DNA of 64,000 bases from a virus. Shown one piece after another: positions 2 to 61,969 of the stretch. Numbering within the stretch: position 1 is the first letter of the stretch; each line of letters opens with the position of its first letter. The stretch is from IMG/VR virus record IMGVR_UViG_3300034198_023063, positions 1 through 64,000 of that record; one strand, given 5' to 3'. The translations under genes and the position numbers were made by a program. The notes below the pieces were generated by a model that did not search any database, was not told the origin of the DNA, and saw only the letters and a program-made list of their open reading frames with translations.

Positions 2-3000
2 AATACTAGATATCAACCACTAGCTTCTTTCTTGCCATTTGGAATGAGATTCGAAGAGGGGGATGAAATTTCTAAAATGATTGGTTTAGCCAAAGGTTAT
101 GTCCCTAATTTTGCAAGAGAAAAAATAATCGCTGCCGCATTTAAAACCAAAAAAGGTAATATTTTTACTGGCTCATATCATGGCGCAGCATATGAAAAAA
201 TTCCAGAAGGAGAAAATATTGATCTTATAGATGGATTTGTCACTAATTCTGGAAAATTTGTAGACAGAAAAGAAGCTGGTTTAATAGCTCAATCCGCTCA
301 TCAATTATATAATAATGGAAACAATAGGAAAGCATTTGCATCGAATAACTATAAATTAGACACAGCGTTTTTGCCTCTTCCTCAAGAAAAATATCGTAGC
401 CGTGGATATATTCCTAATTTCTCTGGGCTATCTCAATCTATATCTAGAGAAAAACAAATGACAGGCTTGCCAGTCTCTCAGATAATGGCTCATTTTGATG
501 GCAAAGGAAATCCAATTGCTGTAACAAATAAAAGAGATGAGCCAAATGGCCTAAAAGATGTGCCGAATTTTGCCCCGCCAAGAGGAGGAGGTAGAGGTGG
601 AGCTAGAGGTGGTAAGGGGTCATCATTAACTCCTGAAAGGGCTATTATTTTAACTCAGGTATTAAATGTAATAGCTGGAGCGGTAGAAGCTGGAGTTAAT
701 GTAGCTGCTCAAAATGAATCTATTTCCCCCGAAACAGCAAGAACTGTTAGTTTCGCTGTGGCTGGTATTAATGCTTTGATTGGGATATCTGCTGGCCTTA
801 AGTCTGTCGGAGGATTTAAAAAAGCTACTGGTCTTCAACGAACTGCTGCCATAGGTTTGCCATTAGTAGCGGCGGCGGCAACTGCTGGAGTTGGGTATCT
901 TGGGTCTGAATCTTTAAAGAAAAACATTTCTCAACAAAAAATCCAAAGAGAATCCGAAAGGGTAGCTCAACAATTTTCGGATCTAACAAATAGTACTCAA
1001 GAACTTAGTGACACTTTGTCTAAATTGGATGCTGCTTATAAAGATGTGTCCACAAATCCAGACGAGTTGCTTAAATTAACAAAAAAATCTACAGAACTTA
1101 CAACTAAGATTTCTAAAACAAACCCTCAGTTGTCAGCTAAATTAGCTGCTGAACCAAATCTTGGTCGTCGCATAGACTTAATACAAGAAAGTAATAAAGA
1201 AGCGACAAGCCAACAAACAGTAGACCAAGAAATCTTAAAACTCAGAAGCCAAGGAAAAGTTTCTAATAAAGAATTAGAATCTTCTTTTAATCGTTTGATA
1301 GGTGGAGTTGGAGAAGATATTTTTAAAACTAAAGAAGGGTCTGTCACAGAAGCTAATTTGCCAGAATTTTTAAAAAAGAATAAATTAGAAAATTTATCTA
1401 AGTTTTTTGACGAGCAAGATAAAGAAGTACAATCCAAATTAAGACCAGCTTTTACTAAAGCTCTTAACAGCCAATTAAAATTAAATAACGAAGCTGAAAA
1501 ATATAATAAAGAAGTAATTAGAATTCAAGGAGACCTATTTAAATCTAGAAAAAAGGTCCAAACAGAAAAAGAGCTTAGAGATATAAATTTAGCAGGAAAA
1601 ATTTCTAACATAGAATCGTTACAAGATTTTGCTCAAAATTTTGGATCGAGGGCTGCTATTTCAGCTAAGGTTGACGCATATAAAACTATTGAAGGATTGA
1701 AGCCGACTAATCAATTTAAACAGGCTATAAATACACAACTCAGAAATGGAAATTTTTCACCTGAAATAACTAGAAAATTATCTTCTATAGAAGGCCCCGG
1801 AGATGTAGCAAAAAAACAATTAGAAGAGATAGCTGCTACTAAAAATTTAACCGAAGAACAAAAAGAGGGTATTAAAAAATTAATAACTCAAAATCAAACT
1901 TCTACTGATGAATTAAAAAAGATCTCTGATATTTCAGAAATAAATAAAAATAATCAATTAAGATTATTAACGATTCAAGAAAAATTGGGTTTTGGTGGAG
2001 GAATTAAAACATCTATAGACGCCAAATCAAGAGTAGAATCTATCAATGCGCCACTCAGAGGAGCTTTAGAATATCAAATTGGAGCGCAATTAGGTTCTCC
2101 AAGATCAATGATAGCTGGCCAAACAAATTTCTTAAAATCTATCCAAGGGCTATATCCCGGCTTAATAGATAAAACTGGAGGGTTAGCTATGGCTTCTCAA
2201 CGTTTATCTGCTTTGAGAATGGGTGACCTTCAGCTTGATTTGATGAAAAATGCTGCCACTGCCGGAAGAATGGGAATGCCTGATGTAGCTGCCGAGTTAA
2301 TGAAGAAGGCTTTCGATCCAAAAGCTTTGGCGGAAATAGCAAAAACTCAAACTGAAACTGAACTTCAAACTGGAAAAACGCCAACTGAAATTTCTAATGA
2401 ATTAAAATCTGCATTTGATTATTTTTCACAATCATTAAATGAAACATTCAAAGGAGAGGCAGAAATAAGACAAAAAGAGAAAGACGTAGCTCAACCTTTA
2501 GAAACAGTCACTAAAACATTTGAAAATTTTCAAAGTGATTTAACTAAGAAAATAGAAGCAGCATTTCAAGAAGCATTTGGAAAAAATGGGGTAGAATTTA
2601 AAAACTCTACAATTGAAGCCCCAAATGCTACGGTTAATGTTTCATCTGCGGCTCCAGCACAATCAGCGTCGAGTGGCGCACAACAGGCGGAAGCTAATAA
2701 AGCGAGCATGGGTGGTTTTAGTAAAGGATTTATTCCTAGTTTTTATAACCCCCTAAGGGAGGCAATACAACGAGAAAATAAATACGTTCCATTTAATTCT
2801 ATAAGAGTAAATAAGAGTGATAAATTAATAAATCCAAACAATCCTTTTGGATTAGCAGTTACAAATACTTTTGATGAACCTAACGGTTTAGCTAGTATAG
2901 GTTTAGCTTCTGGAGGTTTTGTTCCAAATTTCGCAGCATTTGGTTCTAGGGCCGCCTCTGAAGCGAGAAACAACGCTAGGCTTGGAAAACTATATGTTTG

Positions 3001-6000
3001 GGATAATATAGACAATGGCTTTAGAAAAGTTAATCCAAGCGGAACAGTTGACGCTAATTTAATAGATCCAAAAGATTTACCAAAAGGAGCCAGAACAATA
3101 TCAACTGAGCTTTCTCAAGGAGGAGGAAAAAAATCAATAATTCCATTAAAAGATCCAAAAGTTACTAAGCTTGATGAATTAAGTCTTCCGGGCATAGCAA
3201 GATCTCAACCTATAGATAAAATTCTTTCTAGATTAGACAGGCAGGGAAGATTAACCCCTAAGAATTTATTAACAGAAATTAATAAAGTTTCTGGAGGAAA
3301 AGATGTTGTTGTTAAAACAGGTTTCGGAGAGTCTAATGTTCAAAGTAAAGGTGTTTATGGATTAGGCGGAAAATTATCTACCGCTGATGCAAGATCTATT
3401 ATCGGGAAATACACTAGAGGAACTGGCAGTGGCTTTTTTACTCAAGAAAAAGTTCCAACATATTACAATGAATTAAGAGTCCATGTCGCAGTAGACGACA
3501 AAGGAAATATAAAAATAATAAAAGGAGGAACAATTTTAAAGGCAACAGGATTTGATCCCTCTGCTGGTCCTTCTGTAAAAGCTTATACAGACGCAGGTCT
3601 TTCTAAGAATGAAGCTATTAAAATGTCTAAATCTTTTAGAAGATCTGCTGAAGCTTCAGCTTTTGACGCTATAAGAACTTTAGTAAAAACTAAAGGAGTA
3701 AAAAATGCATTCTTTGGAGTAGACGTAGGTGGAACCACTTTGCAATCAGCTTTAGATGCTGGTGTTAAAACTAGAGAATTTTATTCTGGGGGAAGAGGCA
3801 GAGTCGGCACTATTGTATTTGAAGTAAATCCTAGCGATAAAACTGGATCTACCGGATTTATGGGCAGAGGTTTATCTGAAAAATTAGTAAAAAATATTTT
3901 TGGTCAAAAACCTGCTCCTTCAGGATTAACAACAGGTTCACCTGCGATAGGAATTAATCCGACAGGAAATCCAACGTATCCTCCGATAATAAGACCATCG
4001 CTATCTCCTTCTGGGGCTCCATTAGCTTCAGGTCTTCCCGCTGGATTTAGCGCTAAACCAAGTTTAGCCTCTTCTATTATAAATACTGTTAAAAATCAAG
4101 CTACGTTAACAAAAAATTCATTAGTAGCGGGATTCCAAAATATGGCTGGTAAAGCTGGTACTTTTGCAACTAATTTACCAAATATAGGTAGTGGATTAGG
4201 CTCTAAATTTTCAGGATTGGTTAGTGGAGCGAAAGGTTTAGCTGGAAGCGCAGGTTCTAATTTAATGTCGTTTGGAAGAAATGCCTTAGGAAAAGCTGGC
4301 ACTGGCCTTACAATAGCTGGTTCTTTAGGTTTAGGCGAAGAAGCTTATGAGGCTTTAAAGCGCGGAGAGTTTGGAAATGCCGCTGTTTATGGTGGAGCTT
4401 CTGTAGGTTTAGGTATTGGAGCGTTAAATAATATTTTTGGAAAGCAACCTATTTTTAATTCTAGAGCTGGTAGATATGTAGATCCTACAACTGGTAGATT
4501 TACGAGCGCTCCAAAAACTGGTTTATTTGGAAAATTTGCTGGAGGAGCATCTGGAATAGCATCAGCATTACTAAGTGGCGCTCAAACGGTTGAAGAAATA
4601 AAAAATAAAAAATATGGTAATGCGGCTGTTTCTGGCGCTCAGACAGCTCTTTATATCGCTTCTGCTTTATCCAAAAAAGCTACTGGAGCTTTTGGTATAG
4701 CTTCTGGTTTAGGTTTAGCTAAAGACATAGCGAACGCAAAAAATTTCGAGTTAGCTTCTGATTGGTCAGATGTTTTATTTGGCAAAGCAGAGCAAGGCGG
4801 AGGAATTGCTGATTTGGTTGGTACTGCTTTAACCGCTGCTTCTGGTCCAATTGGCGCTGGTGTCGCTACAGCTAAAATTGGATATAGAATTGGTAATGTA
4901 ATAGAAAATAAGCTGGGTTTAGGAGACAAACTTGGAAATGTTATGGCTGGCAGCGAAGCTGCCACAAGAGCCGAATTCGCTTCTCTTGGCATGGCCAAAT
5001 CCATCGCTAAGAAAGACGTTATAGAAGGAAAACAATCTGCATCTAAATATATAGAATCAAAGAGAAGAGATTTAGAAGAGTTAAGCAAAACTGGAGCTTT
5101 TAAAGGAGATGTTATTGACACCTTAAATAAAGATTTAGATCAAATAGCCAGTAAAAGAAAAGAAAGAGAAAAAGCCATCGAAGAGAAATCTAGAACTGAC
5201 GCTATAATCGCTAAAAGAGCTGAAGAAACTAAAGCGAGAGAAGCTGGCTTCAAAGCTGAAGATGAAAAACGAAAAGAAGATCAAAATAAATTTGACGCTT
5301 CTTTAAGGGGAAAAATAGTAGATGGCGTAATTAGAAACGAAGAGCTTTCTGGATTACAAACATCTAGGGATAAAGCTTTATACATAATTGAGCAAGAAAA
5401 GAGATTTGGTAAATTTTCTGAAGCTGATTTTGGTGAAAATAAAGGTTTGTACGATTCTTACAAAAACTACTCCAAAGAGTCGCAAAACATTAAAAAGAAA
5501 GAAGATAAATTCAATGCCGAACTAATGAATCCAGAAGCTGCTGGAGGAGTGGCTTATAGAACACAACCTTTTAGAGAAGAGCAGCAAAGAAAAGTCGAAG
5601 AGCTGGCTTCTTTTCCAAAAGATGCTTTTGAAGAAGCAGCAAGAAGAAGAATGACTGTTGAAGACGTAATGGAAGAAAGGAAGAAGGGCGCGACAAAGAA
5701 TAAATTCAACGGATTCATTCCAAACTTCGCTTATCGCAGAGAGAGGTCTAGTGTATTAACAAGCCCAGATTATGTTGGGTATAGAAATGCTATTCCAGAA
5801 CCTTCTAAATACTATAAAAATGTAGTTAAGAATACCGCTGAAATAGAAGTGCCTGCTGTTGAGGTTTACAATAGAATGGGTCTTTTTGGAGCACAACCTA
5901 AGAATGCTTCTGAAAAATATGCTATTTTGAATCCAGCGCAACAAGCCCAATTAGGTTATGCTGCTAATGGATTTATTCCAAACTTTGCGCCAGAACAATT

Positions 6001-6208
6001 TGCTGGAGCAATAAGCGAGGCTTTGCAACAAGCCTTATCTCCAATGTTTGAGAAAATGGGGTCTTCAGTATCTAATTCTAACGTTATCAATGTTCATGAC
6101 CAAAGATCTTTTGATGTGACATCGGATAAAGTAAATGGAGTAATGGAATTCTTACAAAAACAATTCCCGACACAATTTGCAAGACAAATGGGTCCAAATA
6201 AAGTATAA
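2..6208 (+). CDS. Tape-measure-like polyprotein, 5'-truncated (>2060 aa), with repeated GFxPNFA motifs and embedded cargo domains
   Basis: The frame is open from base 2 (NTRYQPLASFLPFGM...), so the TTG at 32 is probably not the true start. Long coiled-coil (Q/E/K-rich) tracts, Gly/Ala-rich hydrophobic segments and a TMP-like C-terminus (SNSNVINVHDQRSFDV). Lies directly upstream of hub/baseplate-like genes. Confidence 0.75.
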   Translation, partial: NTRYQPLASFLPFGMRFEEGDEISKMIGLAKGYVPNFAREKIIAAAFKTKKGNIFTGSYHGAAYEKIPEGENIDLIDGFVTNSGKFVDRKEAGLIAQSAHQLYNNGNNRKAFASNNYKLDTAFLPLPQEKYRSRGYIPNFSGLSQSISREKQMTGLPVSQIMAHFDGKGNPIAVTNKRDEPNGLKDVPNFAPPRGGGRGGARGGKGSSLTPERAIILTQVLNVIAGAVEAGVNVAAQNESISPETARTVSFAVAGINALIGISAGLKSVGGFKKATGLQRTAAIGLPLVAAAATAGVGYLGSESLKKNISQQKIQRESERVAQQFSDLTNSTQELSDTLSKLDAAYKDVSTNPDELLKLTKKSTELTTKISKTNPQLSAKLAAEPNLGRRIDLIQESNKEATSQQTVDQEILKLRSQGKVSNKELESSFNRLIGGVGEDIFKTKEGSVTEANLPEFLKKNKLENLSKFFDEQDKEVQSKLRPAFTKALNSQLKLNNEAEKYNKEVIRIQGDLFKSRKKVQTEKELRDINLAGKISNIESLQDFAQNFGSRAAISAKVDAYKTIEGLKPTNQFKQAINTQLRNGNFSPEITRKLSSIEGPGDVAKKQLEEIAATKNLTEEQKEGIKKLITQNQTSTDELKKISDISEINKNNQLRLLTIQEKLGFGGGIKTSIDAKSRVESINAPLRGALEYQIGAQLGSPRSMIAGQTNFLKSIQGLYPGLIDKTGGLAMASQRLSALRMGDLQLDLMKNAATAGRMGMPDVAAELMKKAFDPKALAEIAKTQTETELQTGKTPTEISNELKSAFDYFSQSLNETFKGEAEIRQKEKDVAQPLETVTKTFENFQSDLTKKIEAAFQEAFGKNGVEFKNSTIEAPNATVNVSSAAPAQSASSGAQQAEANKASMGGFSKGFIPSFYNPLREAIQRENKYVPFNSIRVNKSDKLINPNNPFGLAVTNTFDEPNGLASIGLASGGFVPNFAAFGSRAASEARNNARLGKLYVWDNIDNGFRKVNPSGTVDANLIDPKDLPKGARTISTELSQGGGKKSIIPLKDPKVTKLDELSLPGIARSQPIDKILSRLDRQGRLTPKNLLTEINKVSGGKDVVVKTGFGESNVQSKGVYGLGGKLSTADARSIIGKYTRGTGSGFFTQEKVPTYYNELRVHVAVDDKGNIKIIKGGTILKATGFDPSAGPSVKAYTDAGLSKNEAIKMSKSFRRSAEASAFDAIRTLVKTKGVKNAFFGVDVGGTTLQSALDAGVKTREFYSGGRGRVGTIVFEVNPSDKTGSTGFMGRGLSEKLVKNIFGQKPAPSGLTTGSPAIGINPTGNPTYPPIIRPSLSPSGAPLASGLPAGFSAKPSLASSIINTVKNQATLTKNSLVAGFQNMAGKAGTFATNLPNIGSGLGSKFSGLVSGAKGLAGSAGSNLMSFGRNALGKAGTGLTIAGSLGLGEEAYEALKRGEFGNAAVYGGASVGLGIGALNNIFGKQPIFNSRAGRYVDPTTGRFTSAPKTGLFGKFAGGASGIASALLSGAQTVEEIKNKKYGNAAVSGAQTALYIASALSKKATGAFGIASGLGLAKDIANAKNFELASDWSDVLFGKAEQGGGIADLVGTALTAASGPIGAGVATAKIGYRIGNVIENKLGLGDKLGNVMAGSEAATRAEFASLGMAKSIAKKDVIEGKQSASKYIESKRRDLEELSKTGAFKGDVIDTLNKDLDQIASKRKEREKAIEEKSRTDAIIAKRAEETKAREAGFKAEDEKRKEDQNKFDASLRGKIVDGVIRNEELSGLQTSRDKALYIIEQEKRFGKFSEADFGENKGLYDSYKNYSKESQNIKKKEDKFNAELMNPEAAGGVAYRTQPFREEQQRKVEELASFPKDAFEEAARRRMTVEDVMEERKKGATKNKFNGFIPNFAYRRERSSVLTSPDYVGYRNAIPEPSKYYKNVVKNTAEIEVPAVEVYNRMGLFGAQPKNASEKYAILNPAQQAQLGYAANGFIPNFAPEQFAGAISEALQQALSPMFEKMGSSVSNSNVINVHDQRSFDVTSDKVNGVMEFLQKQFPTQFARQMGPNKV
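95..5989 (+). repeat. Seven dispersed peptide motifs G(F/Y)(I/V)P(N/S)F(A/S/Y) in the tape measure protein
   Basis: GYVPNFA 95-115, GYIPNFS 404-424, DVPNFA 557-574, GFIPSFY 2726-2746, GFVPNFA 2915-2935, GFIPNFA 5711-5731, GFIPNFA 5969-5989. Synonymous codons differ, so conservation is at the protein level. Confidence 0.9.
3150..3870 (+). other. ATP-grasp (RimK-like) ligase domain embedded in the tape measure protein
   Basis: ATP-grasp motifs in the correct order: VVVKTGFGES..SKGV (~3305), FFTQEKV (~3434), ELRVHV (~3470), FFGVDV (~3710), IVFEVNPS (~3812). Confidence 0.7.
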
Positions 6209-20704: not shown

Positions 20705-23700
20705 ATGAGCGCATTAAATGATAATAAGGCTTTTTTAAGTGGGGTATTAACTGGAGAATCATTAAATTTTGATACTTCAGTTTTTGGTCTTTGGGTTTCT
20801 ATATTTCAAAATGTTAATTATAGTGAAAATGGTTACTCTTACTTTCAGCCGTTAGCGACAGACATTACCGCTATAGATTTTCCTATTACTGGTAAAAGAT
20901 TTTCTTTATTTAATTTTGATGGAAAGTATTCTGATGCAAGATTTATAATATCCTCAGGTAAAAAGGGAGATGCTGAATATGATACTACTGTTCCTATAGC
21001 GGATATTTCAAATTCTTTTGTATCAGGTTTTAAGCCATTAATTATAATGCCAAATGTTGATTTCACGGGCAGCATTTATAGAAGAACTGAAATCACTGGA
21101 TATAGAAATTCTGTAATTGGAAATTATCAAACCCTTGGTCTTTCTGGGGAAGATTGGCAAAAAACATCTATACCAGTAAATGTTAGCGATGACGTTAAAG
21201 AATACGCTTATTTTGATACTGGATACTCTGGTTACTCAAACGAAGTCGCTACAAGATATAAATTTTTATATGATGATCCGTCACACTCGCAAAGACAAAA
21301 CGTATCGATATTTGAAATACCAATTCAATATGAAGCTGGATCAAATTTTAAATATAAAATATCTAGAAAAAGCGATCCATTTGGAGAATTTTATACCCCA
21401 GAAATAACTACTGATGGCAAAATAATTATTGATTACTCTCAATATAAAGATGAAGTAAATAAGCCAGTGGAAGCTGGATTAAATTATAAATTTACTACAG
21501 TTTCTAAATTTTCTTTCCCACAAGGCGTTTTTGAAGATTTAGACGATAATCAAGTTGTCACTAGGCCGATTAATGATTCTTCTATAACTGGACTGAAATT
21601 AACCAGAAGAAAGGAAGGGGATGATACTTATTATGATTTTTATTTGTCATCAACTGGCGTTAATAATACTGGAGCTACTTATGATGGTATTTATAGAATA
21701 ACATTTAATGTAGATAGATATAACACAACAAATAAAACAGGAATAGTTGGTTATGTGATGACCGGCATCAAAACTGGAGACGTATCAACAAATGTTTTAG
21801 TTAATTTAGGAATAAATTCTGGAGTCTACCCTAGGGTCATAGATACTCAAAGATATCAAACTTCAGACATATTAAATTTAGCAAATTTAGAAGAGCTTAT
21901 TGTTAATGAGGAGTCGGCGCAGGCTTTAGCTTCTGATACTGATTTTGAAAACGAAACTAATTTAGCAAAAAATTTACAAGATAATATAAAGAAAAATGTA
22001 GATTTTTTAAACGAATTGCTAAAAGATGAGCCACAAAACCCAACGCAAAATACAACATCAGATCAAGTTTTAAGAGGCCAAATTGATTCTCTTGAAAATT
22101 CTAATTTAGATTCTGCAAATCAAAATCAAATTATAGAAAAAATTGCTCTTCCAAAATTTACGTTACCAAAACAAAATGTAGATAAAAATTATTATAATAA
22201 TTATATAAATTCTGGAGAAGAGTATGTCGCGGTTCCTTTGGCTAATTACACTCTTCAGCCAAGTTATGTTTTTTATGGAGATCAATATGGACAACTAGGA
22301 TACTATATAGAAGAAACTGAATATTCAACATATAGAATAGTTGTTAATTCCACCAGCAATGGAGTTTACGTTTCAAATACTTCGGTTTGCAAAGGAGACA
22401 CTGCTATATATGCAAATATGCCATACTCAGAAGATGTATATTTTGAAAATGGTATTTGCACAAGAATTCCAGAAGATGGAATAATAGATAAAAATAATTA
22501 CGCAACACAAGATAGCTGGAAGAATGCTGTTAATTATTTTTACACAAAAAATTATTTATCTTCAGTAGATGTTTTTCCTACTAGTTCAGATCAAGATGCA
22601 AATTTATCTATATCAAACGCAATATCTAAAGCTTTGCAGCAAATAGGTTCTTGCACGGGAGATTTTCTAACAGAAAACTCAAATGCAAAACCAATATTAT
22701 ATTTGGAAAGAGAAGTTTACGTTGAGCCATACGATAAAGATCAAATAACTCTGCTAAACAATACTTTAAATTCGGGGTCTTTCGTATCTCCAAGTGGAGA
22801 ATTAGTGAGGCAACAAGAAGAAAAGCTTTATTGCGTACAAATTTTTGATACGTCATTTGCTAAAGATAATAGTTCATTTTTCAAGGCAGCTAATGATTAT
22901 GAAGAAAGTTTAACTTTTAAATCCTTTGCTCCTTATAAAGATTCTGCTGGAAAAGATATCGTGAGTTATGGTGTCGGAGAAAATTTTGGTACAGTATATT
23001 ATAATGATCAAAATAAAGATGAGCAAGATATTTATAGATTAGAGTATGTAACTGGACAAGCCTTCTCTTATAATAAAACTTCTAATTTTAGAGCTTGGAA
23101 TGGATTAGGAAGTCAAACAATATCAATATCAAATCAAAACGATAAGAATTATGGCTACCACTTGTATGGATATGAAAACGCAGATGATGTTTTAACTTTT
23201 GTAAAATCTAACATTTTAAATGGGGTAGATGTTTCACCAACATCTTTTACAAACTATGTTGTATTAAAATTTAATAAACAAGGATTTACCGATAGCAGTT
23301 ATATTTTTAATGACTCTAATGGAACTAATTATACAGCAATAAATACTTCAGTGGTTGATTCTTCTGGAGCTTTGTTATCATCAAGTTATGTGTTTTTTAA
23401 TATACAAAAATATTCATACTTGGCAAGAGCGGTAACAGAAAATAATGTTTGGTATACCAACAAGTTGATTCCAATAAATGATGATTCATATGGCGCTGAA
23501 GATCAGTTTGGATTATTTGCTCCTAGATTTTTTGAAGACGCAACACAGGAAGCAAAGTCTGCGGCAGAACAACTTTTTGTGTTTCCAAATGGGCCTTCGA
23601 CTTCCAAAAATTACGAAGGATCTCCGTTAGTTTACGATCATCTTCCTAGCATACCTCAAGGAGTATTAAATAATAAATTAGTCATAACAGAAGAAAGAAA

Positions 23701-26700
23701 AAATTATAATATAATAAATAATGATTTCATATTAAATTTTGTTTTGGAGGGAAGGCTTACAAAAGAACTGGGCCTTAATAATGTTAAAAATTATAAAGAT
23801 TCTAGAAGACTTAAAATAACAAGAGTAAGATACAATGTATATTCTAAAAATTTATTGATTGTTGGTGACGCTGGTTTTCCATATGCATTAGCATTAAATA
23901 CAGGTTGGGAATACAAACTTCAATACAGGAAAAAAGGAGTAGGTTCAGCTTGGAAAGAGATGGATTCTACCTCATCTTTTACAAATAGTAAAATTGCAAA
24001 TGTAAGTTCATTTCTGAATCCATATTTTTATAAATTTGAAGATTTGATAACGCCGAACTATCTTCCAACTGTTGGGTTTTTGACTAATTTACCAAATTTC
24101 TTAGATGATAGCCAATATCAATTTAGAATTTTTAAATACGAAAAATTTGATTCTGGTTCAGATTCGGTTGATATAATAAGAAAAACAAACTTTTTGCCAA
24201 TACAAGTAAATTGGGCGAATGATAACAAATCTTCTTATTTTAATATTTACCAATTAGATAGCGGCAATAATTTAAAACTAATAAAAACAGAAAACCAAAA
24301 AAGTTCTTCTACGTTTGCTATTCCAAGCGTTAAACAGCAATATTTTGATTTGGGATTGGCTAATTTTTCCAAAAATGGATCAGGATATTATGATATAATA
24401 GTTTCTGGCGCTTTGCCATCTACTCAAGTTAATACTGGATTAGCGGGTTCTGTATTTATAGGAAATCCAACTATAGGAAATTCCACCGCAGATCCAAGTG
24501 ATCAAAATGATCCATCTGGACCAATAATAATAGATGTAATTAATCAAACATCTAATACAAGCGGTTATAATTCAATAACTGGAGTGACATATGCTCCTCT
24601 TATAAATTTTAATAATCCAGAATCTAAAAATGCAGATTTTAGTATTAACGCAAATTATAGTGGTTATTATTTTATATCCGATGGTAAAAATGCTACCTTA
24701 GATAACTCTTTAGTTAATGGTTTTGAGTGCTATGTTGCAAATACTGGATCATCAACCAATATTTATTCTAATGGCTCAGCTTATTCTTTAAATAATAATA
24801 AGGTAGCAAAAGTGATTTTGCCTTCAGTAACAACTACGGACTCAATCCGAGCTTTACCATCAGCGCAAGTAAGCGTTGATTATACTAATAATTATGTTTA
24901 TATAAAAGAAAATTTTAATTATAACACAGGAGATTTTGAAGCTAGCGCTGGGACAAAAAGTTCAATTTCTACAATTATAAATGGATCAAGTTCTTCTGTC
25001 ACATTAACTTATGGGACTGGAACGATATCAATTCCAGCTAATACGAGTTATAAACTGCAATTCGATAATGGTTGGGATGGGTCTGCATTCGCCTCTCAGA
25101 TTCTTCAATTAAATTCTTATAAAAATGTAGATACTCAAGCTTCTTATATAAATTCTTCTGGTGGTTTAGTTAATTTAAATTATGATTCTTTAATATTAAA
25201 TACCCAAGACTATATTGATTTACCAATTTATAATTTTGCAAAAAATAAACTATCTGTAAATGGATTAATAAATTTAAATGCAGATTCATTTTATCTTTTG
25301 AGTGGAAATCCGGCTGGAACAATAACGGCGACTGAAAAAGATTATTTTGATTCTATAAAAATATACTTAGATGGAAGCGAGGGGGAAAATAATATTTTTG
25401 TATTAAAAGATGATACTGATATAGATGTGTCTTATTTCCAGTTTGGCAATCGAAAAGAGTATTATTTTATAAAAGACAACAATATACAAAGATCTTTAAA
25501 TATAAAAATCAAAAATGGAACCTCGGAGAAATTAATTCCAAAAGGATCACCAGATTTTAAATTAACTGTTAAAAAAGATACGTTTTCTAATATAACTTAT
25601 GAGATTTTATTTCCATCTTCAGATTTTACTACATTAATCGGAGACGAACTTGAGCAATTAATAGTAATAAAATCTCAAAATAGTCATATTATTGATTTGG
25701 GATATATAGAGGGCTCGCTAAAATCTAATGCTTTTGTTTATTTTGTTAACTCTTCAAATACAAACGTAGATTTTCAAAGAGATTTCAAGAGCGTCATGAC
25801 TTTATCAAATGGCGAAATCGCTAAAGTAACTCTAGAAAAATACAATCTAACAGCAAGAATTACAAAAATAAATGAAGCAAGAAATCATTTTGAATTTAAA
25901 ATAGATCCGCAAATTCATTTAACAGAACCTTCTGGGGTCAATATTTTGAATTTAAATTTTTGTGGCGCTGATGTTGTTCTGCCGCCTCCTTCTGATTTTT
26001 CAGCTAAAGAAACTTTTATAATTTCTAAAAATAGATTAGCAGCAAATAAAATAGATTACAAAAAAATAGAAAACACTCCCAGCACAGCCATATCTTCTGA
26101 AGGAAAATTCTCACAAAATAGCATTGTATGTAAAATTTATAAAAATTCATCTTCTAGTACATACCCTGCCGTAGATCAGTCAGAAATATCTGCTGGCTAT
26201 TATTCCCCTTTCAGAGAAAGAAATACTCCAAAAGATGATGTTTATGAAGTTTTCTATATTAAAGATGCTGATTTAAAGTCTTTTTCTATAAAAGATTATT
26301 TCGAAAGATCAGCATATTATTATGGGAAAGTTTTGTTGGAGTCTGAAAAGGAGTTTTCTATTTATTCTTATGATGAAAATAATAGCAATACACAAAATGT
26401 AGAAAAAAAGGGGGTTAGTTTTGATTTTGATTTCGATTTGGGTGAAGTCATAGATGGCGCACTAACTACAAAGCTGGTTGAAAACGATTACCAAATAATT
26501 AATTCTAATAGCGAAGACGACGGTGTTCAGACTTTAGATAATTTTTCAGTTGGTCAATATTGCATAAATTTCGCTTATGATAGCGTAGCTCTTACTGGTC
26601 AGAGCGTATCTTTGATTAAAAATAGAGGAGCTTTTATAAACGAAAATCAAGGGTTGAGGGTTTTCCCAATTTATAATGAAGATGAGTTTTTTATTGCAGA

Positions 26701-29700
26701 AAATATAAATCAAGAACTTAGATCTTCTTACACAAATTATAGAAAAGAAGATGGCGTTAAGTTGTATACTTCATTTTTTTATCAACTTAATAATTCCACG
26801 GATATTGAATCAGTATTTCTTCCGTATTCTACTGATAAAAAATATATTATAGAAAATTTATCTTCTAGGGCTTTTGATATAAAAACTCTGGATTCAAATT
26901 CTTTGGTCACAACAATAAAACCAAACGAAAAAAAGACATTCTCTTACTCGTCTACATCTTGGATTAGTTCAAACTACATTGATAGCGTAGATGGATATTT
27001 GCCCACTGATAGTAGTCCTTCTGTAATTAAATCTGAAAATCAAAATAATGAAAAAGATTCTGCGCACCCATTTATTAGTTTATTTGGAACAGCTAATAGT
27101 TTAGATGGTATAAAAGGTAATATTTTTGAGTCATTTTGTTATGATGAGGCTGGTACTTTAAAGTCATCGATAAGTTTACCAAATGGAGAGCAATCTTTAA
27201 CATACAATTTAATAGACTGCGATGAGGCCAAAAATAATACCACAACTAGCGATGGGTCTTCACAGTATATGTTTTGCTATGGAAGAGGAGGAGCAAAAAC
27301 TATATCTGATACAGATTTTGTTTTAAATGATTTTTATCTTTTTATTAAATATGGAACTAGCTACATTAAAAATAAACAAGTAGGCGGAAAGTTTTTAAGT
27401 AGAATTAGTAGCGAGGGTATTGATAATCCAATTTTAACTATAATAAAAAGAAATCATTTTGATTTGTTGAGTTTATTTATTTCTGAAAATGGATATGCCA
27501 CATCATTACCGAGAAATTTAAGGTCTGCTACGCCAATTCCGTTTTATAATGAGTTGCAGACTTATTACTTGCCAAATTTAAATATTACGATACAAAAAAC
27601 AGAAGAAGAAGTAGAAAATCCTTCCCTTGGCTCTTTATGGCTGGGCAAAAAATTTGTTTTTATTAATTTAGTAAAAGTAAACTCTCAAGCCCCAAACAAG
27701 ATATATAATTATACAGATGAAACTTATACTGACTTGATAAATACAAGTGGAGAAAATTCTGTTGCTGTTTTTGAGGTGGTATATGATGGGACAAATTATT
27801 TATGGAAAAAACAAACTTTAAATGTTCCTAAAATTCAAAATGTATACGTTTCTTTAAAAAATGTAAAAGGCCTCGATTCAACTTCTTCTTCCAATGTTAC
27901 AGATGGTAGAGAGATGGTTTATTTGAGTAATTTTAGAACTTTTAATGTTTCAATAGATAGTTTTGCTGATTATAAATTTAACAATTTTTATTTATATAAT
28001 TCCTGCAACTATCCTTTAGAGATTTTGTTTAATGGCTCTAGAAGTAGTTTAGACGCCAACTCTCCATTCGTGAAAGTTAGTTATGATGGATCTTTTATAC
28101 CAAAAGAGATATCATATAATCATACGACTAATTTTGTAGAGACTGAATCTATAGATATAAGAATTACTTCAAATACAGATACCGATACGACCTTAATAGA
28201 GCGAATTGCTTATATTTATCCATCCCCAGTAATAGGGGCTTATGCAAAATTAAATTATAGAACATACTCTACAAGTGCGGGGATAACTACTTATTCTGAT
28301 TTATCATCCGCATTATTCGTATCGTCAAGTAATGGTTGGTCTAAAATAAATTTATCAGATTATTTAAGCGATAATTATTGCGATCTAAATGTTAGTAATT
28401 TAGAAAAATATAGCCCTGATTCAAGATTATTTATTTACGGATCTTCTGTTAGGAATCAGTACTCTCAAAGCTTTGACACATACACTCTTAGAGTGGTCGC
28501 GCCAGAATCAAGATCGACATCGTTTTTTATTTTTAATAATACGGTTAATGATTTAAAAATAAAATTTGTAACATCTAATTTTACTGACTTCGGCGGAATT
28601 GGGCGGTTAACAATTAATTTAGCTAAAAACAGAATCTCTAAAGTTTATAAAAACTCAAATGGCAAACTATCTTTTGAAGTACTAGAAATCCACCAACGGG
28701 GCAGATACTATCTATCTAATAAAAATAAAAACATTAACTATATAAACGGCTCAGAAATAGAACTTTTTATTGATGCTTGTGTGCCTTCCGATTTAGACTC
28801 TCAACCTTTTGAAATATCAAATGATAATATAAATTGTTTTCTTACATTGTTACCAACAAGTTCTGAGTATACTAGGATTTTTTATAATCTTTATCAAGGC
28901 GCAAATGGTAATTTAGTTAAAAATAGAGACACAAAAGGCGATTCGGTCAATAATTTTTCCGTAGTCCCTTTTGATACGTCGCAAAGTCTGGGATGGCTAT
29001 CTTTAAATAATTCACAAGATTACCAAAAAGATTTAATTACTCCATTTTTGGATATATCAGTAGCAGGGCATTATATTTTAACAAACTATAATTATTCTGT
29101 AAAAATAACTCCTAGTGCTTCAGATATCTTTTTAGTAAATAATACATCAAAAAATATTAAAGTTCAGCAGGGAGATTCTGATTATCAATTATATAGAAAT
29201 ACTGTTTTAATTGTAAATTCTACATCAAAAAGATATTTAAAAAAGGGAAAAAGAAAAGACGCCTTTTATTCTGTATTTAATCCTAAGACTTTAGTGAATA
29301 CTCAAAGAGAGATCAGTTTAGTATTGGGAATAGAAAGGCATCAAGAAATTTTGCCGATTTATGACATAGATTTTGTAGATGTCCCATCTTATCTAAAGTT
29401 ATATTCAAGATATGGGCAAACTCAATCTGTTTACTTGAATTTTCAAGATTATTATTTAGGCAAAGATATTCCATCAGATTGCCCAGAAAATATGCTTGCT
29501 TACGAGGTGGGAACTGGGCATGAAACCATATATAAGTTTTTATTCTTTGATCCTTCTACTAATTATTATACTTTACCGGGCATAACAGAAGGTGAAGAGT
29601 ATTTAGTGGATTTTAATGAGGGTTTATTCTTCAATTTATTATTGGGGCAAGGTGGCGACAAGTTTGGTTCAGTTATGTATATGGGTAAAAAATACTATAA

Positions 29701-30502
29701 TGGCCAAACATTTATTGGCGGAGCATCATCTTGGTATGAAGTAGATTGTCCAGATTACATAAAAGTACAAAAAATAACTAGAGAAATTCCATTAGGGTTT
29801 GAGGATTTTTACGAACCAGAAAAAGACTCTGATATAACAGATTCAACTGCAATAGTAGATTTAGATCAAAATATTCAATTACCAGATGACCCTCTTGCGC
29901 TGCTAAAATCTAATATTTTTAATTTTATTGGGCAAACTTTAGCTTCTTTTCCAGCAACTCAATCTTCTTTATGCTGGATTCCAGAAAATCAAAATGCTTT
30001 TTGGTTAGACTCTAATTTTATCAAAGATATATGGGAAGTAGAAGAAATAATCCCATCAGATACTAAGAAAATTACTTCAGGCACTCAAGAAGTTTCATTT
30101 GTTAAGTGCAAAATGAAGAAAATTGGCTCTAGATTTTTAATAAATAGCTTTTTCTTTAACTTTTATTCCGCGCTACAGAATAAGTTAAAAATGAGTGATG
30201 ATGGGCAAATAAGCATGGGATTTGACTATAATTTAAAGCCTAGTCAAAGAAAAAGATTAAATGATATAGGTAAATATGTTTACGAGCAGAATGATTATAT
30301 TTTCTCAAATAAAGAATTTTTATTAACTCCGATTTTAAAGGAATACTTGGTTCCAATAGATTCTAATTCTGCTAGTGTAATTAAAGATGCTGAAACCGAA
30401 GTGATAATAACAATAGAAAAATTAAAGAGTATGCCTGAATTAAGGATAGAAGATTATTCTTTTGATCCTACGGTAACTCTTTTGAATAGTAACAAGGCAT
30501 AA
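20705..30502 (+). CDS. Giant virion/tail-fibre-like protein with tandem degenerate beta-sandwich modules (3265 aa)
   Basis: Uninterrupted 9.8-kb ORF, N/S/Y/F-rich. About ten recurrences of (Y/F)(I/F/L)xNxS/T...L/IxxN modules between ~24700 and ~29230. Confidence 0.65.
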   Translation: MSALNDNKAFLSGVLTGESLNFDTSVFGLWVSIFQNVNYSENGYSYFQPLATDITAIDFPITGKRFSLFNFDGKYSDARFIISSGKKGDAEYDTTVPIADISNSFVSGFKPLIIMPNVDFTGSIYRRTEITGYRNSVIGNYQTLGLSGEDWQKTSIPVNVSDDVKEYAYFDTGYSGYSNEVATRYKFLYDDPSHSQRQNVSIFEIPIQYEAGSNFKYKISRKSDPFGEFYTPEITTDGKIIIDYSQYKDEVNKPVEAGLNYKFTTVSKFSFPQGVFEDLDDNQVVTRPINDSSITGLKLTRRKEGDDTYYDFYLSSTGVNNTGATYDGIYRITFNVDRYNTTNKTGIVGYVMTGIKTGDVSTNVLVNLGINSGVYPRVIDTQRYQTSDILNLANLEELIVNEESAQALASDTDFENETNLAKNLQDNIKKNVDFLNELLKDEPQNPTQNTTSDQVLRGQIDSLENSNLDSANQNQIIEKIALPKFTLPKQNVDKNYYNNYINSGEEYVAVPLANYTLQPSYVFYGDQYGQLGYYIEETEYSTYRIVVNSTSNGVYVSNTSVCKGDTAIYANMPYSEDVYFENGICTRIPEDGIIDKNNYATQDSWKNAVNYFYTKNYLSSVDVFPTSSDQDANLSISNAISKALQQIGSCTGDFLTENSNAKPILYLEREVYVEPYDKDQITLLNNTLNSGSFVSPSGELVRQQEEKLYCVQIFDTSFAKDNSSFFKAANDYEESLTFKSFAPYKDSAGKDIVSYGVGENFGTVYYNDQNKDEQDIYRLEYVTGQAFSYNKTSNFRAWNGLGSQTISISNQNDKNYGYHLYGYENADDVLTFVKSNILNGVDVSPTSFTNYVVLKFNKQGFTDSSYIFNDSNGTNYTAINTSVVDSSGALLSSSYVFFNIQKYSYLARAVTENNVWYTNKLIPINDDSYGAEDQFGLFAPRFFEDATQEAKSAAEQLFVFPNGPSTSKNYEGSPLVYDHLPSIPQGVLNNKLVITEERKNYNIINNDFILNFVLEGRLTKELGLNNVKNYKDSRRLKITRVRYNVYSKNLLIVGDAGFPYALALNTGWEYKLQYRKKGVGSAWKEMDSTSSFTNSKIANVSSFLNPYFYKFEDLITPNYLPTVGFLTNLPNFLDDSQYQFRIFKYEKFDSGSDSVDIIRKTNFLPIQVNWANDNKSSYFNIYQLDSGNNLKLIKTENQKSSSTFAIPSVKQQYFDLGLANFSKNGSGYYDIIVSGALPSTQVNTGLAGSVFIGNPTIGNSTADPSDQNDPSGPIIIDVINQTSNTSGYNSITGVTYAPLINFNNPESKNADFSINANYSGYYFISDGKNATLDNSLVNGFECYVANTGSSTNIYSNGSAYSLNNNKVAKVILPSVTTTDSIRALPSAQVSVDYTNNYVYIKENFNYNTGDFEASAGTKSSISTIINGSSSSVTLTYGTGTISIPANTSYKLQFDNGWDGSAFASQILQLNSYKNVDTQASYINSSGGLVNLNYDSLILNTQDYIDLPIYNFAKNKLSVNGLINLNADSFYLLSGNPAGTITATEKDYFDSIKIYLDGSEGENNIFVLKDDTDIDVSYFQFGNRKEYYFIKDNNIQRSLNIKIKNGTSEKLIPKGSPDFKLTVKKDTFSNITYEILFPSSDFTTLIGDELEQLIVIKSQNSHIIDLGYIEGSLKSNAFVYFVNSSNTNVDFQRDFKSVMTLSNGEIAKVTLEKYNLTARITKINEARNHFEFKIDPQIHLTEPSGVNILNLNFCGADVVLPPPSDFSAKETFIISKNRLAANKIDYKKIENTPSTAISSEGKFSQNSIVCKIYKNSSSSTYPAVDQSEISAGYYSPFRERNTPKDDVYEVFYIKDADLKSFSIKDYFERSAYYYGKVLLESEKEFSIYSYDENNSNTQNVEKKGVSFDFDFDLGEVIDGALTTKLVENDYQIINSNSEDDGVQTLDNFSVGQYCINFAYDSVALTGQSVSLIKNRGAFINENQGLRVFPIYNEDEFFIAENINQELRSSYTNYRKEDGVKLYTSFFYQLNNSTDIESVFLPYSTDKKYIIENLSSRAFDIKTLDSNSLVTTIKPNEKKTFSYSSTSWISSNYIDSVDGYLPTDSSPSVIKSENQNNEKDSAHPFISLFGTANSLDGIKGNIFESFCYDEAGTLKSSISLPNGEQSLTYNLIDCDEAKNNTTTSDGSSQYMFCYGRGGAKTISDTDFVLNDFYLFIKYGTSYIKNKQVGGKFLSRISSEGIDNPILTIIKRNHFDLLSLFISENGYATSLPRNLRSATPIPFYNELQTYYLPNLNITIQKTEEEVENPSLGSLWLGKKFVFINLVKVNSQAPNKIYNYTDETYTDLINTSGENSVAVFEVVYDGTNYLWKKQTLNVPKIQNVYVSLKNVKGLDSTSSSNVTDGREMVYLSNFRTFNVSIDSFADYKFNNFYLYNSCNYPLEILFNGSRSSLDANSPFVKVSYDGSFIPKEISYNHTTNFVETESIDIRITSNTDTDTTLIERIAYIYPSPVIGAYAKLNYRTYSTSAGITTYSDLSSALFVSSSNGWSKINLSDYLSDNYCDLNVSNLEKYSPDSRLFIYGSSVRNQYSQSFDTYTLRVVAPESRSTSFFIFNNTVNDLKIKFVTSNFTDFGGIGRLTINLAKNRISKVYKNSNGKLSFEVLEIHQRGRYYLSNKNKNINYINGSEIELFIDACVPSDLDSQPFEISNDNINCFLTLLPTSSEYTRIFYNLYQGANGNLVKNRDTKGDSVNNFSVVPFDTSQSLGWLSLNNSQDYQKDLITPFLDISVAGHYILTNYNYSVKITPSASDIFLVNNTSKNIKVQQGDSDYQLYRNTVLIVNSTSKRYLKKGKRKDAFYSVFNPKTLVNTQREISLVLGIERHQEILPIYDIDFVDVPSYLKLYSRYGQTQSVYLNFQDYYLGKDIPSDCPENMLAYEVGTGHETIYKFLFFDPSTNYYTLPGITEGEEYLVDFNEGLFFNLLLGQGGDKFGSVMYMGKKYYNGQTFIGGASSWYEVDCPDYIKVQKITREIPLGFEDFYEPEKDSDITDSTAIVDLDQNIQLPDDPLALLKSNIFNFIGQTLASFPATQSSLCWIPENQNAFWLDSNFIKDIWEVEEIIPSDTKKITSGTQEVSFVKCKMKKIGSRFLINSFFFNFYSALQNKLKMSDDGQISMGFDYNLKPSQRKRLNDIGKYVYEQNDYIFSNKEFLLTPILKEYLVPIDSNSASVIKDAETEVIITIEKLKSMPELRIEDYSFDPTVTLLNSNKA

Positions 30503-38111: not shown

Positions 38112-39248
38112 GAAGTAAAAGCTGTCAGCCTCTTCTTTGAAAGAGTCGTCTAAGATTTGAGGCAAAGGGAAAGAGCCATTTCTAACATCTGGGTGATTAA
38201 TTCCAGCCCGACAATGCCATTTGCTAGCGAACGTTTTCCCGCTTTTAATTATTATTTTATTTGTTTTGAAGAAAACTTTTGATTTATCAAGCCCATCTAA
38301 AAATGATAAATCCATTTTATTTAGCTTGTTAATTATTTTATAATTTAAATATTTTAGTTTTTCAGGCTCTAGGTCTTTATCGTTAAGGGATGTTATAATG
38401 TCATAATTAAATTTAAAAGACTCCAGTAAGTCTATAAAAGATGGATCTGAACCTTTTTGAACTTTAAAATATATTTTTTTAATTGAATTTTTATAAGTTA
38501 GTAAAATATTTTTAGAAATATCTCTATTTGTTACTATGGAAGCGGGACCATTTTTTAATTGATCAGCAAGGTTTGCTTCTGAAAAAAATTCATCCATTCT
38601 AACTAATATTTCATTTTTTGAATCATTAGTTATTTTAAAACTGCAATCTGGAATTAAATCCATAGTTGGAAATGAATAAACTTTCCCAATCGAAAGGGTT
38701 CTATCAAAATCATAATTTTCTTCAGGCGATAGTTTTGAAAGTATCTTTACTGCGATTTCTTCTGGTCTAATATTATTTATGAAATTACCAATAGGATTAA
38801 AAAAGTTTTTTGATGCTTTATTCGTATTGATGATTTCATTTTCGCCAAGCAGCAAATTGTCAACAAGATAATCTGTTTTTAAAAATATTTGCGGAATTCC
38901 TTTTTCAGAACAGATGAGAGAATAAAATTTTGAAGAACCACAATAAAGCATTGAGTGGTTTAGCATATAGGCTTTTTCAGACAAACTGGTTTCTTTGTCT
39001 ATGCAAGTGCGGCTGAATGGTTGTTTTTTGTCGTCTACAAAATTAACTATCTCTATACTATTTTTAGATAAGAAAGGCTCAATTAATTGAACGACCCTAC
39101 TCCAGAATACATAATTTAAATTTTGATCATCGTTTTGAGTTTCCAGCACTATGTATTTAGTGAATGGTAGTGGGAAAAACTTCTGATAAATAAAACTATC
39201 ATTAGGCTCGATGCCTGTAGTAGAAGAAAAAGATTTAAGTAAATTCAT
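38091..39248 (-). CDS. Degenerate GT9 (heptosyltransferase-like) C-terminal-lobe protein (385 aa)
   Basis: YIVLETQ...NYVFWSRVVQLI...TSLSEKAYMLNHSMLYCGSSKFYSLICSEKGIPQIFL follows the GT9 C-lobe pattern, but the GxDSxxxH motif is altered. Confidence 0.5.
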   Translation of the reverse strand: MNLLKSFSSTTGIEPNDSFIYQKFFPLPFTKYIVLETQNDDQNLNYVFWSRVVQLIEPFLSKNSIEIVNFVDDKKQPFSRTCIDKETSLSEKAYMLNHSMLYCGSSKFYSLICSEKGIPQIFLKTDYLVDNLLLGENEIINTNKASKNFFNPIGNFINNIRPEEIAVKILSKLSPEENYDFDRTLSIGKVYSFPTMDLIPDCSFKITNDSKNEILVRMDEFFSEANLADQLKNGPASIVTNRDISKNILLTYKNSIKKIYFKVQKGSDPSFIDLLESFKFNYDIITSLNDKDLEPEKLKYLNYKIINKLNKMDLSFLDGLDKSKVFFKTNKIIIKSGKTFASKWHCRAGINHPDVRNGSFPLPQILDDSFKEEADSFYFLTNEKI

Positions 39249-41686: not shown

Positions 41687-41715
41687 ATGATGCTCTTTTT
41701 ACTCTAGATTGTCAA
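41687..41715 (-). promoter_or_regulatory. Sigma70-type promoter TTGACA-N17-CATCAT, 7 nt before the ATG (leaderless)
   Basis: -35 at 41715-41710, -10 at 41692-41687, ATG at 41679. Confidence 0.75.
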
Positions 41716-44266: not shown

Positions 44267-44901
44267 ATCTCGACTTGAAATTTAATTTTATTCCACACTT
44301 TTAGATTTAACTCCAAATCTACAATAGCATTGTGGAGATTTTCGTAATCATGCTCTATGTTATAATCTTTTCCGAGAGAAGTTAAATTAGTTTTAATGCC
44401 TTTTCTATAAGTATGAAGCAACTTGTATTGATATTCTACAAGGGACTCTTTTGGCATTTTAGGAATTCCATATTTGATTCCTTTAGCCAAGCAATTAGTA
44501 TCAAGGATTTTATTAACTAGATGGCTAGCTCGCATTCCTTTGAGTAAATACATCTCTTTTATTAAATACAAGTCGAAGCCAAGAATATTATGACCAACAA
44601 TATAGTCAGAACACTCAAGCCAATCCCTAACAGTACTAAACACATCATCAAATTTCTTGCCAGTTGTTCTAATAAGTTCTTCTGGATATCTTGTGATTCT
44701 TCTCGCATCTTCAGATATTTTAAGGTTTGTGTCCCATTTAACAAGAAAATCTCGCTCGTCGACTTTTTTTCCGCCAACAGTGCTTAGCATCGCTATTTGC
44801 CAAGGTAGATTTTGACAGAAATTAAGGCAAAGATTAAGTGTTTCGCAGTCGATAAAAACAAGTTTTTTAGACTTGTCAAATCTTAATAGTTCATTTTCCA
44901 T
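44263..44901 (-). CDS. DEDDh 3'-5' exonuclease (Pol III epsilon/PolC exonuclease-like; 212 aa)
   Basis: FIDCET, GHNILGFDL, ILDT and LHNAIVDL motifs; lies between the PHP and polymerase genes. Confidence 0.9.
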   Translation of the reverse strand: MENELLRFDKSKKLVFIDCETLNLCLNFCQNLPWQIAMLSTVGGKKVDERDFLVKWDTNLKISEDARRITRYPEELIRTTGKKFDDVFSTVRDWLECSDYIVGHNILGFDLYLIKEMYLLKGMRASHLVNKILDTNCLAKGIKYGIPKMPKESLVEYQYKLLHTYRKGIKTNLTSLGKDYNIEHDYENLHNAIVDLELNLKVWNKIKFQVEI

Positions 44902-50920: not shown

Positions 50921-50949
50921 AGTGTGGCTTGAAATCAGAGATTAGTCAA
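50921..50949 (-). promoter_or_regulatory. Sigma70-type promoter TTGACT-N17-CACACT, 7 nt before the GTG (leaderless)
   Basis: -35 at 50949-50944, -10 at 50926-50921, GTG at 50913. Confidence 0.7.
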
Positions 50950-51993: not shown

Positions 51994-51994
51994 A

Positions 51995-52309
51995 TCAAAA
52001 CTTTACTCTTCCAATAATTATATCTTTAAGCATTACCCAGTCCGCTGCCTTAGCCCAGATTGGATTTTTAAATGCGGCTGGTTTATTTTTCTCTATGAAA
52101 AAATGACCGCTCCAAGCAAATGGATAAACAATAAATGGAAGCGCTATAAACATGGGAAGAAAAAACAAAGACTTCCAAAAAACGAGTCTGATACAAAGAA
52201 TAAAATAACCAATTGTAAACAACTGACCCAGAACATGAAGTCTTCTGTTCCACTTATTTTGATGGAGTGTTAGATACATTTCGTAATATTCTTTAAATGT
52301 CATATTCAT
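51995..52309 (-). CDS. DUF962/Mpo1-like small membrane protein (104 aa)
   Basis: YLTLHQNKWNRRLHVLG, two hydrophobic helices, YPFAWSGHFFIEKNKPAAF. Confidence 0.8.
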   Translation of the reverse strand: MNMTFKEYYEMYLTLHQNKWNRRLHVLGQLFTIGYFILCIRLVFWKSLFFLPMFIALPFIVYPFAWSGHFFIEKNKPAAFKNPIWAKAADWVMLKDIIIGRVKF

Positions 52310-55164: not shown

Positions 55165-55179
55165 ACAGTATTAGTTTTA

Positions 55180-55974: not shown

Positions 55975-55980
55975 AATATA

Positions 55981-58406: not shown

Positions 58407-58407
58407 A

Positions 58408-59304: not shown

Positions 59305-59305
59305 A

Positions 59306-59836: not shown

Positions 59837-59837
59837 A

Positions 59838-61967: not shown

Positions 61968-61969
61968 AA

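Follow-up and report, generated by a model that had tools for sequence, protein, structure and literature searches.

A predicted ATP-grasp ligase module carried as an optional cassette in the tape measure protein of an uncultured freshwater phage

Peptidoglycan hydrolase or peptidase motifs are embedded in some phage tape measure proteins (TMPs), such as Pb2 of T5 and the TMP of mycobacteriophage TM4. To our knowledge, the TMP enzymes known so far have the cell wall as their target, outside the cytoplasm, and work without ATP. We describe here a TMP with a predicted ATP-grasp module, encoded in positions 1 to 64,000 of the IMG/VR virus record IMGVR_UViG_3300034198_023063 (the window); unlike the known TMP enzymes, this module would need ATP-Mg2+, hence a cytoplasm. 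Exchangeable, ejected functional domains are carried by TMP-related effectors of contractile injection systems such as Sle1 (PMC13277306). As in these effectors and in the TMP enzymes, a functional domain is joined here to a TMP scaffold and exchanged among relatives, and its ejection is proposed by analogy. There is also a likeness to the polyvalent proteins (Iyer et al. 2017, PMC5512222), which present several unrelated domains on one long polypeptide and are proposed to enter with the DNA; in the TMP lineage such domains are ATP-grasp and T4_Y16D, with DUF7178 in homologues. However, the carrier is here the tail ruler and not a head-packaged MuF or portal-associated protein, and the polyvalent-protein survey makes no mention of TMPs and mentions ATP-grasp for RNA ligases only.

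The classical ATP-grasp carboxylate-amine ligases used for comparison were Ddl/VanA, DcsG, TTL, LysX/ArgX, RimK, PGM1, BacD and S. aureus SAOUHSC_02373. The R2K/Cdc123 clade, which includes phage members and members linked to type VI secretion systems, is defined by a second Lys/Arg, placed in the loop that follows the strand-2 Lys, and lacks the linker Lys (PMC4431377). A survey of jumbo phages lists only standalone R2K ligases and RNA ligases. No TMP-ATP-grasp fusion was found in the TMP and ATP-grasp literature searched, and blastn and tblastn against GenBank phages (50,697 phage records in tblastn) gave no homologue. An earlier reading of the window from the sequence alone had placed a RimK-like ATP-grasp domain inside a TMP and had noted that no such fusion seemed to be described.

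The DNA comes from a large, uncultured phage of fresh water. The window covers the initial 64 kb of the 80,757-base record, which CheckV rates as 53% complete, and has a GC content of about 31%. Its plus strand holds very large virion genes (600-3265 aa), and its minus strand holds replication genes (DNA polymerase III alpha, DnaB, primase, RecA) and sugar-nucleotide genes. The open reading frame (ORF) of interest lies at the beginning of the window and is truncated at its 5' end, since the frame is already open at the first base of the contig. Residues are numbered below along this ORF, whose main regions are:

2..6208, plus strand: ORF assigned as the C-terminal 2068 aa of a giant TMP, with the 5' end lost at the contig end (frame open from base 2; collinear homologues)
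638..907, plus strand: three hydrophobic, transmembrane-like segments, aa 213-302 (Kyte-Doolittle mean of at least 1.2 over 19 aa)
2894..3142, plus strand: conserved extension on the N-terminal side of the cassette, aa ~965-1047, which may be a reduced pre-ATP-grasp domain (identity to homologues)
3143..3901, plus strand: predicted ATP-grasp catalytic module, aa ~1048-1300, with a RAGNYA domain and a protein-kinase-like domain (AlphaFold2 model, fold searches, language-model neighbours)
3902..5101, plus strand: Pro-rich linker followed by a Gly/Ala/Ser-rich region with glycine-zipper-like motifs, aa ~1301-1700 (composition and motif count)

The module is therefore flanked in the TMP by coiled-coil or hydrophobic segments upstream and by the Pro-rich linker and the Gly/Ala-rich, glycine-zipper-like region downstream. 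From collinearity with proteins matching PF10145 or TMP PHROGs and from the conserved gene order, we assign the ORF to the C-terminus of a TMP of about 3500 aa. Its alignment with TMPs of 3065-3692 aa is collinear and spans these proteins from the middle onwards to the C-terminal end. PF10145 (PhageMin_Tail) was detected at aa ~115-301 of three collinear full-length homologues (E 4e-26 to 4e-28), and the precomputed annotation of this family is present on 17 of the 21 homologue clusters; the corresponding region falls outside the window, where the 5' end is cut, and is known from the homologues. The N-terminal 621 aa of the L002 orthologue (3511 aa) matched 15 TMP PHROGs, the best being phrog_4211 (E 2e-49). 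The TMP gene lies 3' of the head and tail-shaft genes and two small genes, and 5' of the large tail-tip genes; the gene order around it is identical in L002, L011 and L014. In a related complete genome of 174.5 kb, the terminase gene TerL and the head genes are found upstream of the TMP, in the canonical order. A Pfam search of this genome for a tail sheath gave no match which, given the divergence of these phages, leaves siphovirus versus myovirus undecided. PHROGs left most neighbouring structural genes unnamed, and a search for tRNA genes, meant for host inference, found none.

The six motifs named in the sequence-only reading were all found in frame and in the order given there:

aa 1102 (nt 3305), plus strand: VVVK
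aa 1115, plus strand: SKGV
aa 1146, plus strand: FTQEKV
aa 1157, plus strand: ELRVHV
aa 1237, plus strand: FFGVDV
aa 1271 (nt 3812), plus strand: IVFEVNP

For searches and modelling, a domain segment of 313 aa was used (P0002, window 3002-3940), together with alignments of 10 (A1), 23 (A2) and 6 (A3) sequences. AlphaFold2 gave a poor model from the single sequence (predicted local distance difference test, pLDDT, 41) and a confident one with the alignment A2 (pLDDT 77.5, predicted template modelling score 0.74). With this model, Foldseek against the PDB returned exclusively ATP-grasp enzymes through rank 49, with E-values from 4.5e-4; PurK, RimK, ArgX/LysX, PurD, TTL, Ddl and ligases of ribosomally synthesised and post-translationally modified peptides are among them. 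The ATP-grasp fold that the sequence-only reading had anticipated is the one predicted by AlphaFold, and its PDB matches through rank 49 are all of that fold. In a library of viral structures, the top matches were standalone ATP-grasp, TTL and Cdc123 proteins of phages and giant viruses, and no match was named as a TMP. A protein language-model search gave neighbours with the RimK, GSH-S_ATP and YheCD families, which we take as a lead only. The domain has the two parts that define the ATP-grasp fold, a RAGNYA domain and a protein-kinase/PIPK-like domain.

These results bear on an alternative in which an ordinary TMP sequence lacking the ATP-grasp fold matches the motifs by chance. It would agree with the lack of Pfam, PHROG and PDB sequence matches and with the pLDDT of 41 from the single sequence, but it does not account for the confident alignment-based model, for three independent structure searches returning ATP-grasp enzymes only, for the ATP-grasp families in the language-model search or for the invariance of the motif residues. 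We consider a fortuitous match extremely improbable, and for practical purposes the model and the structure searches refute it. The model indicates instead that aa ~1048-1300 form an intact, very divergent ATP-grasp catalytic module, probably of the carboxylate-amine (amide-bond) ligase type. The N-terminal extension shares a mean identity of 44-49% with homologues over aa 951-1050, and its modelled part is of low confidence (pLDDT 41-72). Only about 50-80 residues precede the module; hhalign places them on RimK residues 6-100 with a non-significant E-value of 0.04, and a pre-ATP-grasp domain would be rudimentary at most.

Candidate catalytic residues were assigned with the template of conserved positions of the ATP-grasp superfamily (Burroughs et al. 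2015, PMC4431377). This template comprises a Lys at the end of RAGNYA strand 2, a Lys in the linker before the RAGNYA domain, an acidic residue in the middle of kinase-like strand 4 and an ExN at the end of strand 5, while an Arg in the first kinase-like strand marks the amide-bond ligase assemblage (PMC4431377). The candidates, with strands numbered as in the model, are:

3167..3169, plus strand: K1056, candidate linker Lys (first ATP-phosphate Lys) in D-P-x3-K-L-D-E-L, assigned by position only
3314..3316, plus strand: K1105, predicted ATP-binding Lys ending RAGNYA strand 2 (VVVK-T), invariant; model strand 102-105
3443..3448, plus strand: Q1148-E1149, predicted hinge (FFTQEKV), with Q1148 invariant and E1149 variable
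3476..3478, plus strand: R1159, candidate Arg of the first kinase-like strand, invariant; model strand 155-164; pairs with the Arg of RimK DIRCLV
3722..3724, plus strand: D1241 (FFGVDV), candidate Mg2+ ligand in the middle of kinase-like strand 4, invariant; centre of model strand 236-246
3821..3829, plus strand: E1274-V-N1276 (ExN), predicted Mg2+ ligands at the end of kinase-like strand 5, invariant; end of model strand 268-277

None of K1105, Q1148, R1159, D1241 and the E and N of E1274-x-N1276 varies among the 23 homologues of A2, down to 35% identity, and in the secondary structure of the model K1105, R1159, D1241 and the ExN sit on the strands that the superfamily template specifies. From the fold, the conserved residues are predicted to cluster in one pocket. 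In the hhalign alignment with RimK, which was taken as a residue map only and not as evidence of homology, K1105 pairs with K141 of RimK, Q1148-E1149 with the hinge LVQEYI and E1274-x-N1276 with E-V-N in LVMEVNAS. The linker Lys is less certain: K1056 is invariant in A1 and A3 and conserved in at least 90% of A2, but hhalign puts the DK motif of RimK at D1072/K1073. After K1105 comes a Gly-rich flexible loop ending in G1117-V-Y-G1120. Its 11 residues up to G1117 make it longer than the ssxGbGl loop of about 9 residues in the template, and it ends in an invariant G-V-[YF]-G instead of GbG; the low pLDDT at model positions 109-114 is as expected of a flexible lid.

Assignment to a known family was less successful. 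Pfam gave no match for the whole ORF (E up to 1) or for the 313-aa domain (E up to 10), and on six homologous domains it gave only two isolated weak matches (OprF and Ppx-GppA), taken as noise. On the ORF, PHROGs matched only with phrog_839, for a small N-terminal domain described below. Neither phmmer nor a profile search against PDB sequences gave an ATP-grasp match. PF08443 had no match across the whole virus record, while 13 of 14 control genomes were positive. The family profile aligned to E. coli RimK alone over a short stretch (hhalign, E 0.11); the RimK profile itself is shallow, as a homologue search seeded with RimK gave only sequences 87-100% identical. The sequence-only reading was therefore right about an ATP-grasp fold with its residues in a TMP but not about the family: the profile cut-off of the RimK family (PF08443, with RimK_N PF18030) was not reached, and structurally the domain is no closer to RimK than to other ATP-grasp families. 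The R2K/Cdc123 clade was likewise rejected. Its second loop Lys/Arg is not conserved here (position 1116 is K, R, Q, L or G), and the TMP domain conserves a candidate linker Lys, K1056, whose role is assigned by position. Compared with the classical ligases, the TMP domain has no family-profile match and at most 19% identity to any solved structure, its Gly-rich loop is longer, a further stretch is inserted downstream of the Arg strand, and about 27 additional residues separate the Asp strand from the ExN strand; it also forms part of a virion protein some 3500 aa long and is not a free enzyme. We regard it as a new ATP-grasp family, invisible to profiles and in a new architectural context.

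When 1.8 billion cluster representatives were searched exhaustively with phmmer, 9 proved to be clear relatives of the domain segment; apart from one fragment of 167 aa, they are proteins of 1191-3692 aa. A word-indexed search extended the set to 21 clusters at 90% identity. No relative turned up among the genomes of 185,579 prokaryote species. The fusion of ATP-grasp and TMP is retained in every one of about 25 homologues. There is no sign of separate expression of the domain from an internal promoter: promoter-like sites within the ORF are at chance level (19, against 16.4 +/- 4.2 expected), and the phage's own promoter class, TTGACW-N16-18-CAYNNT, has no site within the ORF.

The ATP-grasp domain is the most conserved block of the TMP. 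Averaged over 18 homologues, identity in this block is 44-58%, whereas most other windows of 50 residues show 11-39%; only the motif-bearing windows aa 151-200 and 951-1000 come near it (45-49%). In comparison with the L002-type orthologue P0016, the block is 76-96% identical, against 12-50% in most windows, and in one pair of TMPs the domain is 86% identical against 45% overall. Between the window and L004, the ratio of non-synonymous to synonymous substitution (dN/dS) is about 0.065, with dS near saturation. A different pattern was observed in P0011 (3065 aa), which is 79-87% identical to the window TMP at aa 101-200 and 82% at aa 1951-2000, and 19-49% in the ATP-grasp block; identity to P0016 runs along the TMP in the opposite way. 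This mosaic relationship suggests recombination between TMP segments.

Conservation of this kind has to be weighed against a non-catalytic role, in which the module binds ATP or serves as structure, as a plug, a spacer or an ATP-binding folding ratchet that pulls TMP and DNA through the membrane. Membrane-like segments flank the domain, the pre-ATP-grasp domain that normally aids acceptor-substrate binding is reduced, and no substrate or partner gene is evident, all of which would fit. However, both Mg2+ ligands, the ExN and the clade-specific catalytic Arg are also invariant, needlessly for a mere binder or spacer, and a dN/dS of 0.065 is very low for a spacer; we therefore hold a non-catalytic module to be improbable. 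We take the domain as active because the residues for nucleotide, metal and acyl-phosphate are all invariant under strong purifying selection, and the predicted activity, that of an ATP-dependent carboxylate-amine ligase, is one that we hold with good confidence.

The module is an optional cassette of the TMP, since syntenic TMPs of L011 and L014 lack it and their homology breaks at GFVPNFA. With the upstream TMP segment as query, four syntenic TMPs were found, and the ATP-grasp domain is missing from two of them, L011 (2755 aa) and L014 (3453 aa). In both, homology to the window TMP ends exactly at GFVPNFA (aa 978) and resumes at aa 1628 and 1768, with low-complexity or coiled-coil sequence between. 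The upstream boundary and a second cassette are:

2915..2935, plus strand: GFVPNFA motif (aa 972-978), upstream cassette boundary (homology break in L011 and L014)
116..403, plus strand: second cassette, a small T4_Y16D-like domain (aa 39-134) between GYVPNFA and GYIPNFS (PF26092, phrog_839)

Translated in six frames, the window contains the pattern G-x-[IVL]-P-[NS]-[FY] six times, in each case within the TMP. Motifs of the form G-[FY]-[IV]-P-[NS]-F-A were likewise noted in the TMP only, at nt 95, 404, 560, 2726, 2915, 5711 and 5969 (window 95-5989). They are often paired 35-90 aa apart, enclosing a conserved module R-E-K ... N-P-x-G-x-A-V-T-N-x-x-D-E-P-N-G-L, and cassette gain and loss among relatives occurs at motifs of the GFxPNFA type. 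An obligatory partnership between the ATP-grasp domain and these motifs was rejected, as relatives without the domain retain 10-13 of them. For the T4_Y16D-like domain, all 30 atlas neighbours carry PF26092 T4_Y16D (score 0.92), PF26092 is precomputed for the window's own protein and phrog_839 matches with E 1.8e-6; this domain is missing from the otherwise collinear P0016 (3511 aa). DUF7178, found at aa 849-1046 of the homologous TMP P0022 (E 4e-21), is a further cassette in some TMPs that bear ATP-grasp.

In the mechanism that we propose, ATP-Mg2+ would be held between the RAGNYA and kinase-like domains by K1105, probably K1056, Q1148-E1149, D1241 and E1274/N1276. ATP would convert a carboxylate to an acyl-phosphate, stabilised by R1159, and attack of an amine on it would yield the amide, ADP and Pi. 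The module would be carried in the tail as part of the TMP, exit before the DNA, regain its fold on the cytoplasmic side and consume host ATP, and it would ligate an amino acid or peptide to a host or phage macromolecule early in infection. We lean towards a macromolecular substrate because of the weak acceptor-binding N-terminal domain and the protein context, and a protein target is what we infer. The need for ATP limits the action to a cytoplasm, and therefore to the time after ejection or to the producer cell.

Action in the producer cell, before or during tail assembly, would modify the TMP, tail proteins or a small molecule. It could be exerted by the nascent TMP or by a fragment excised at the GFxPNFA motifs, and the domain might then be absent or non-functional in the mature virion. 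ATP is found only in a cytoplasm, and the number of TMP copies made in a producer cell far exceeds that delivered by an infecting virion; a tail tube is a poor fit for a folded globular domain, the block structure bounded by motifs is compatible with a processed polyprotein and purifying selection fits equally well. However, neither a protease nor evidence of cleavage was found (Pfam and PHROGs detected no processing peptidase or metallopeptidase in the TMP), and the GFxPNFA motifs, with their 10-13 copies in relatives without ATP-grasp, are not its obligatory substrate. For an enzyme needed in the producer cell only, a gene of its own, like those of the standalone ATP-grasp proteins of phages, would also be simpler, yet the fusion is kept in all of the approximately 25 homologues. 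We rate this explanation as possible but rather unlikely. Action after ejection is preferred, at somewhat less than an even chance, because of the cassette behaviour, the adjoining membrane-type segments, the constant fusion and the analogy to injected effectors related to TMPs. The arrangement suggests a tail that carries a ready-made enzyme; its delivery into the host is our inference.

Several points weigh against delivery of an active ligase by the TMP. Each TMP copy would bring a folded domain of about 28 kDa, which is not expected to fit the lumen of a tail tube of about 4 nm; passage would require unfolding, or else the domain would be excised before the tail is assembled. Each infection delivers only a few copies of the TMP, limiting what a delivered enzyme could modify. 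The residue equivalences would hold only as far as motif position and predicted secondary structure carry them, and the domain is recognised by no sequence profile. The family profile is collinear with an alignment of RimK over nearly all of RimK, but with an E-value that is not significant (hhalign, 0.04). Finally, the conservation of the domain is partly a matter of ascertainment, as the homologues were collected with the domain itself as query. Taken as a whole, the reading of an active ligase in the TMP, delivered and acting in the host, is a tentative one that falls slightly short of an even chance.

Other genes in the window may be of interest. On the plus strand, window 20705-30502 contains an ORF of 3265 aa with neighbours of 1032-1168 aa without any Pfam match, presumably giant tail or baseplate proteins. 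On the minus strand, a DNA polymerase III alpha of 855 aa (window 41699-44266) has its NTPase domain from residue 45, and its N-terminal PHP domain seems to be missing or separately encoded; an ORF of 212 aa just upstream (44263-44901) is a candidate for a separate PHP domain. Sugar-nucleotide and modification genes are found amid the replication genes at window 50935-61988 (minus strand). The modification set includes a GDP-mannose 4,6-dehydratase, a DegT-type aminotransferase and a B12-binding radical SAM enzyme, with a glycosyltransferase at 39245-41110.

The ATP-grasp domain offers a biochemical handle on an old question, that of the distance travelled by the TMP in ejection. An intact ATP-Mg-dependent ligase under purifying selection in a TMP implies either that part of the TMP works in the host cytoplasm or that the TMP doubles as an enzyme of the producer cell. 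The TMP may even be a modular vehicle, in which enzymes acting in the cytoplasm are spliced at GFxPNFA junctions, refold in the host and covalently tag a low-copy defence or phage-entry protein before phage gene expression, although we consider this extended version unlikely. Should the module prove to be an injected modifier, it would give direct evidence of a part of the TMP reaching the cytoplasm and represent a new class of injected post-translational modifier. TMP enzyme cassettes exchanged at a fixed peptide motif may also be of interest for engineered protein delivery by phage tails.

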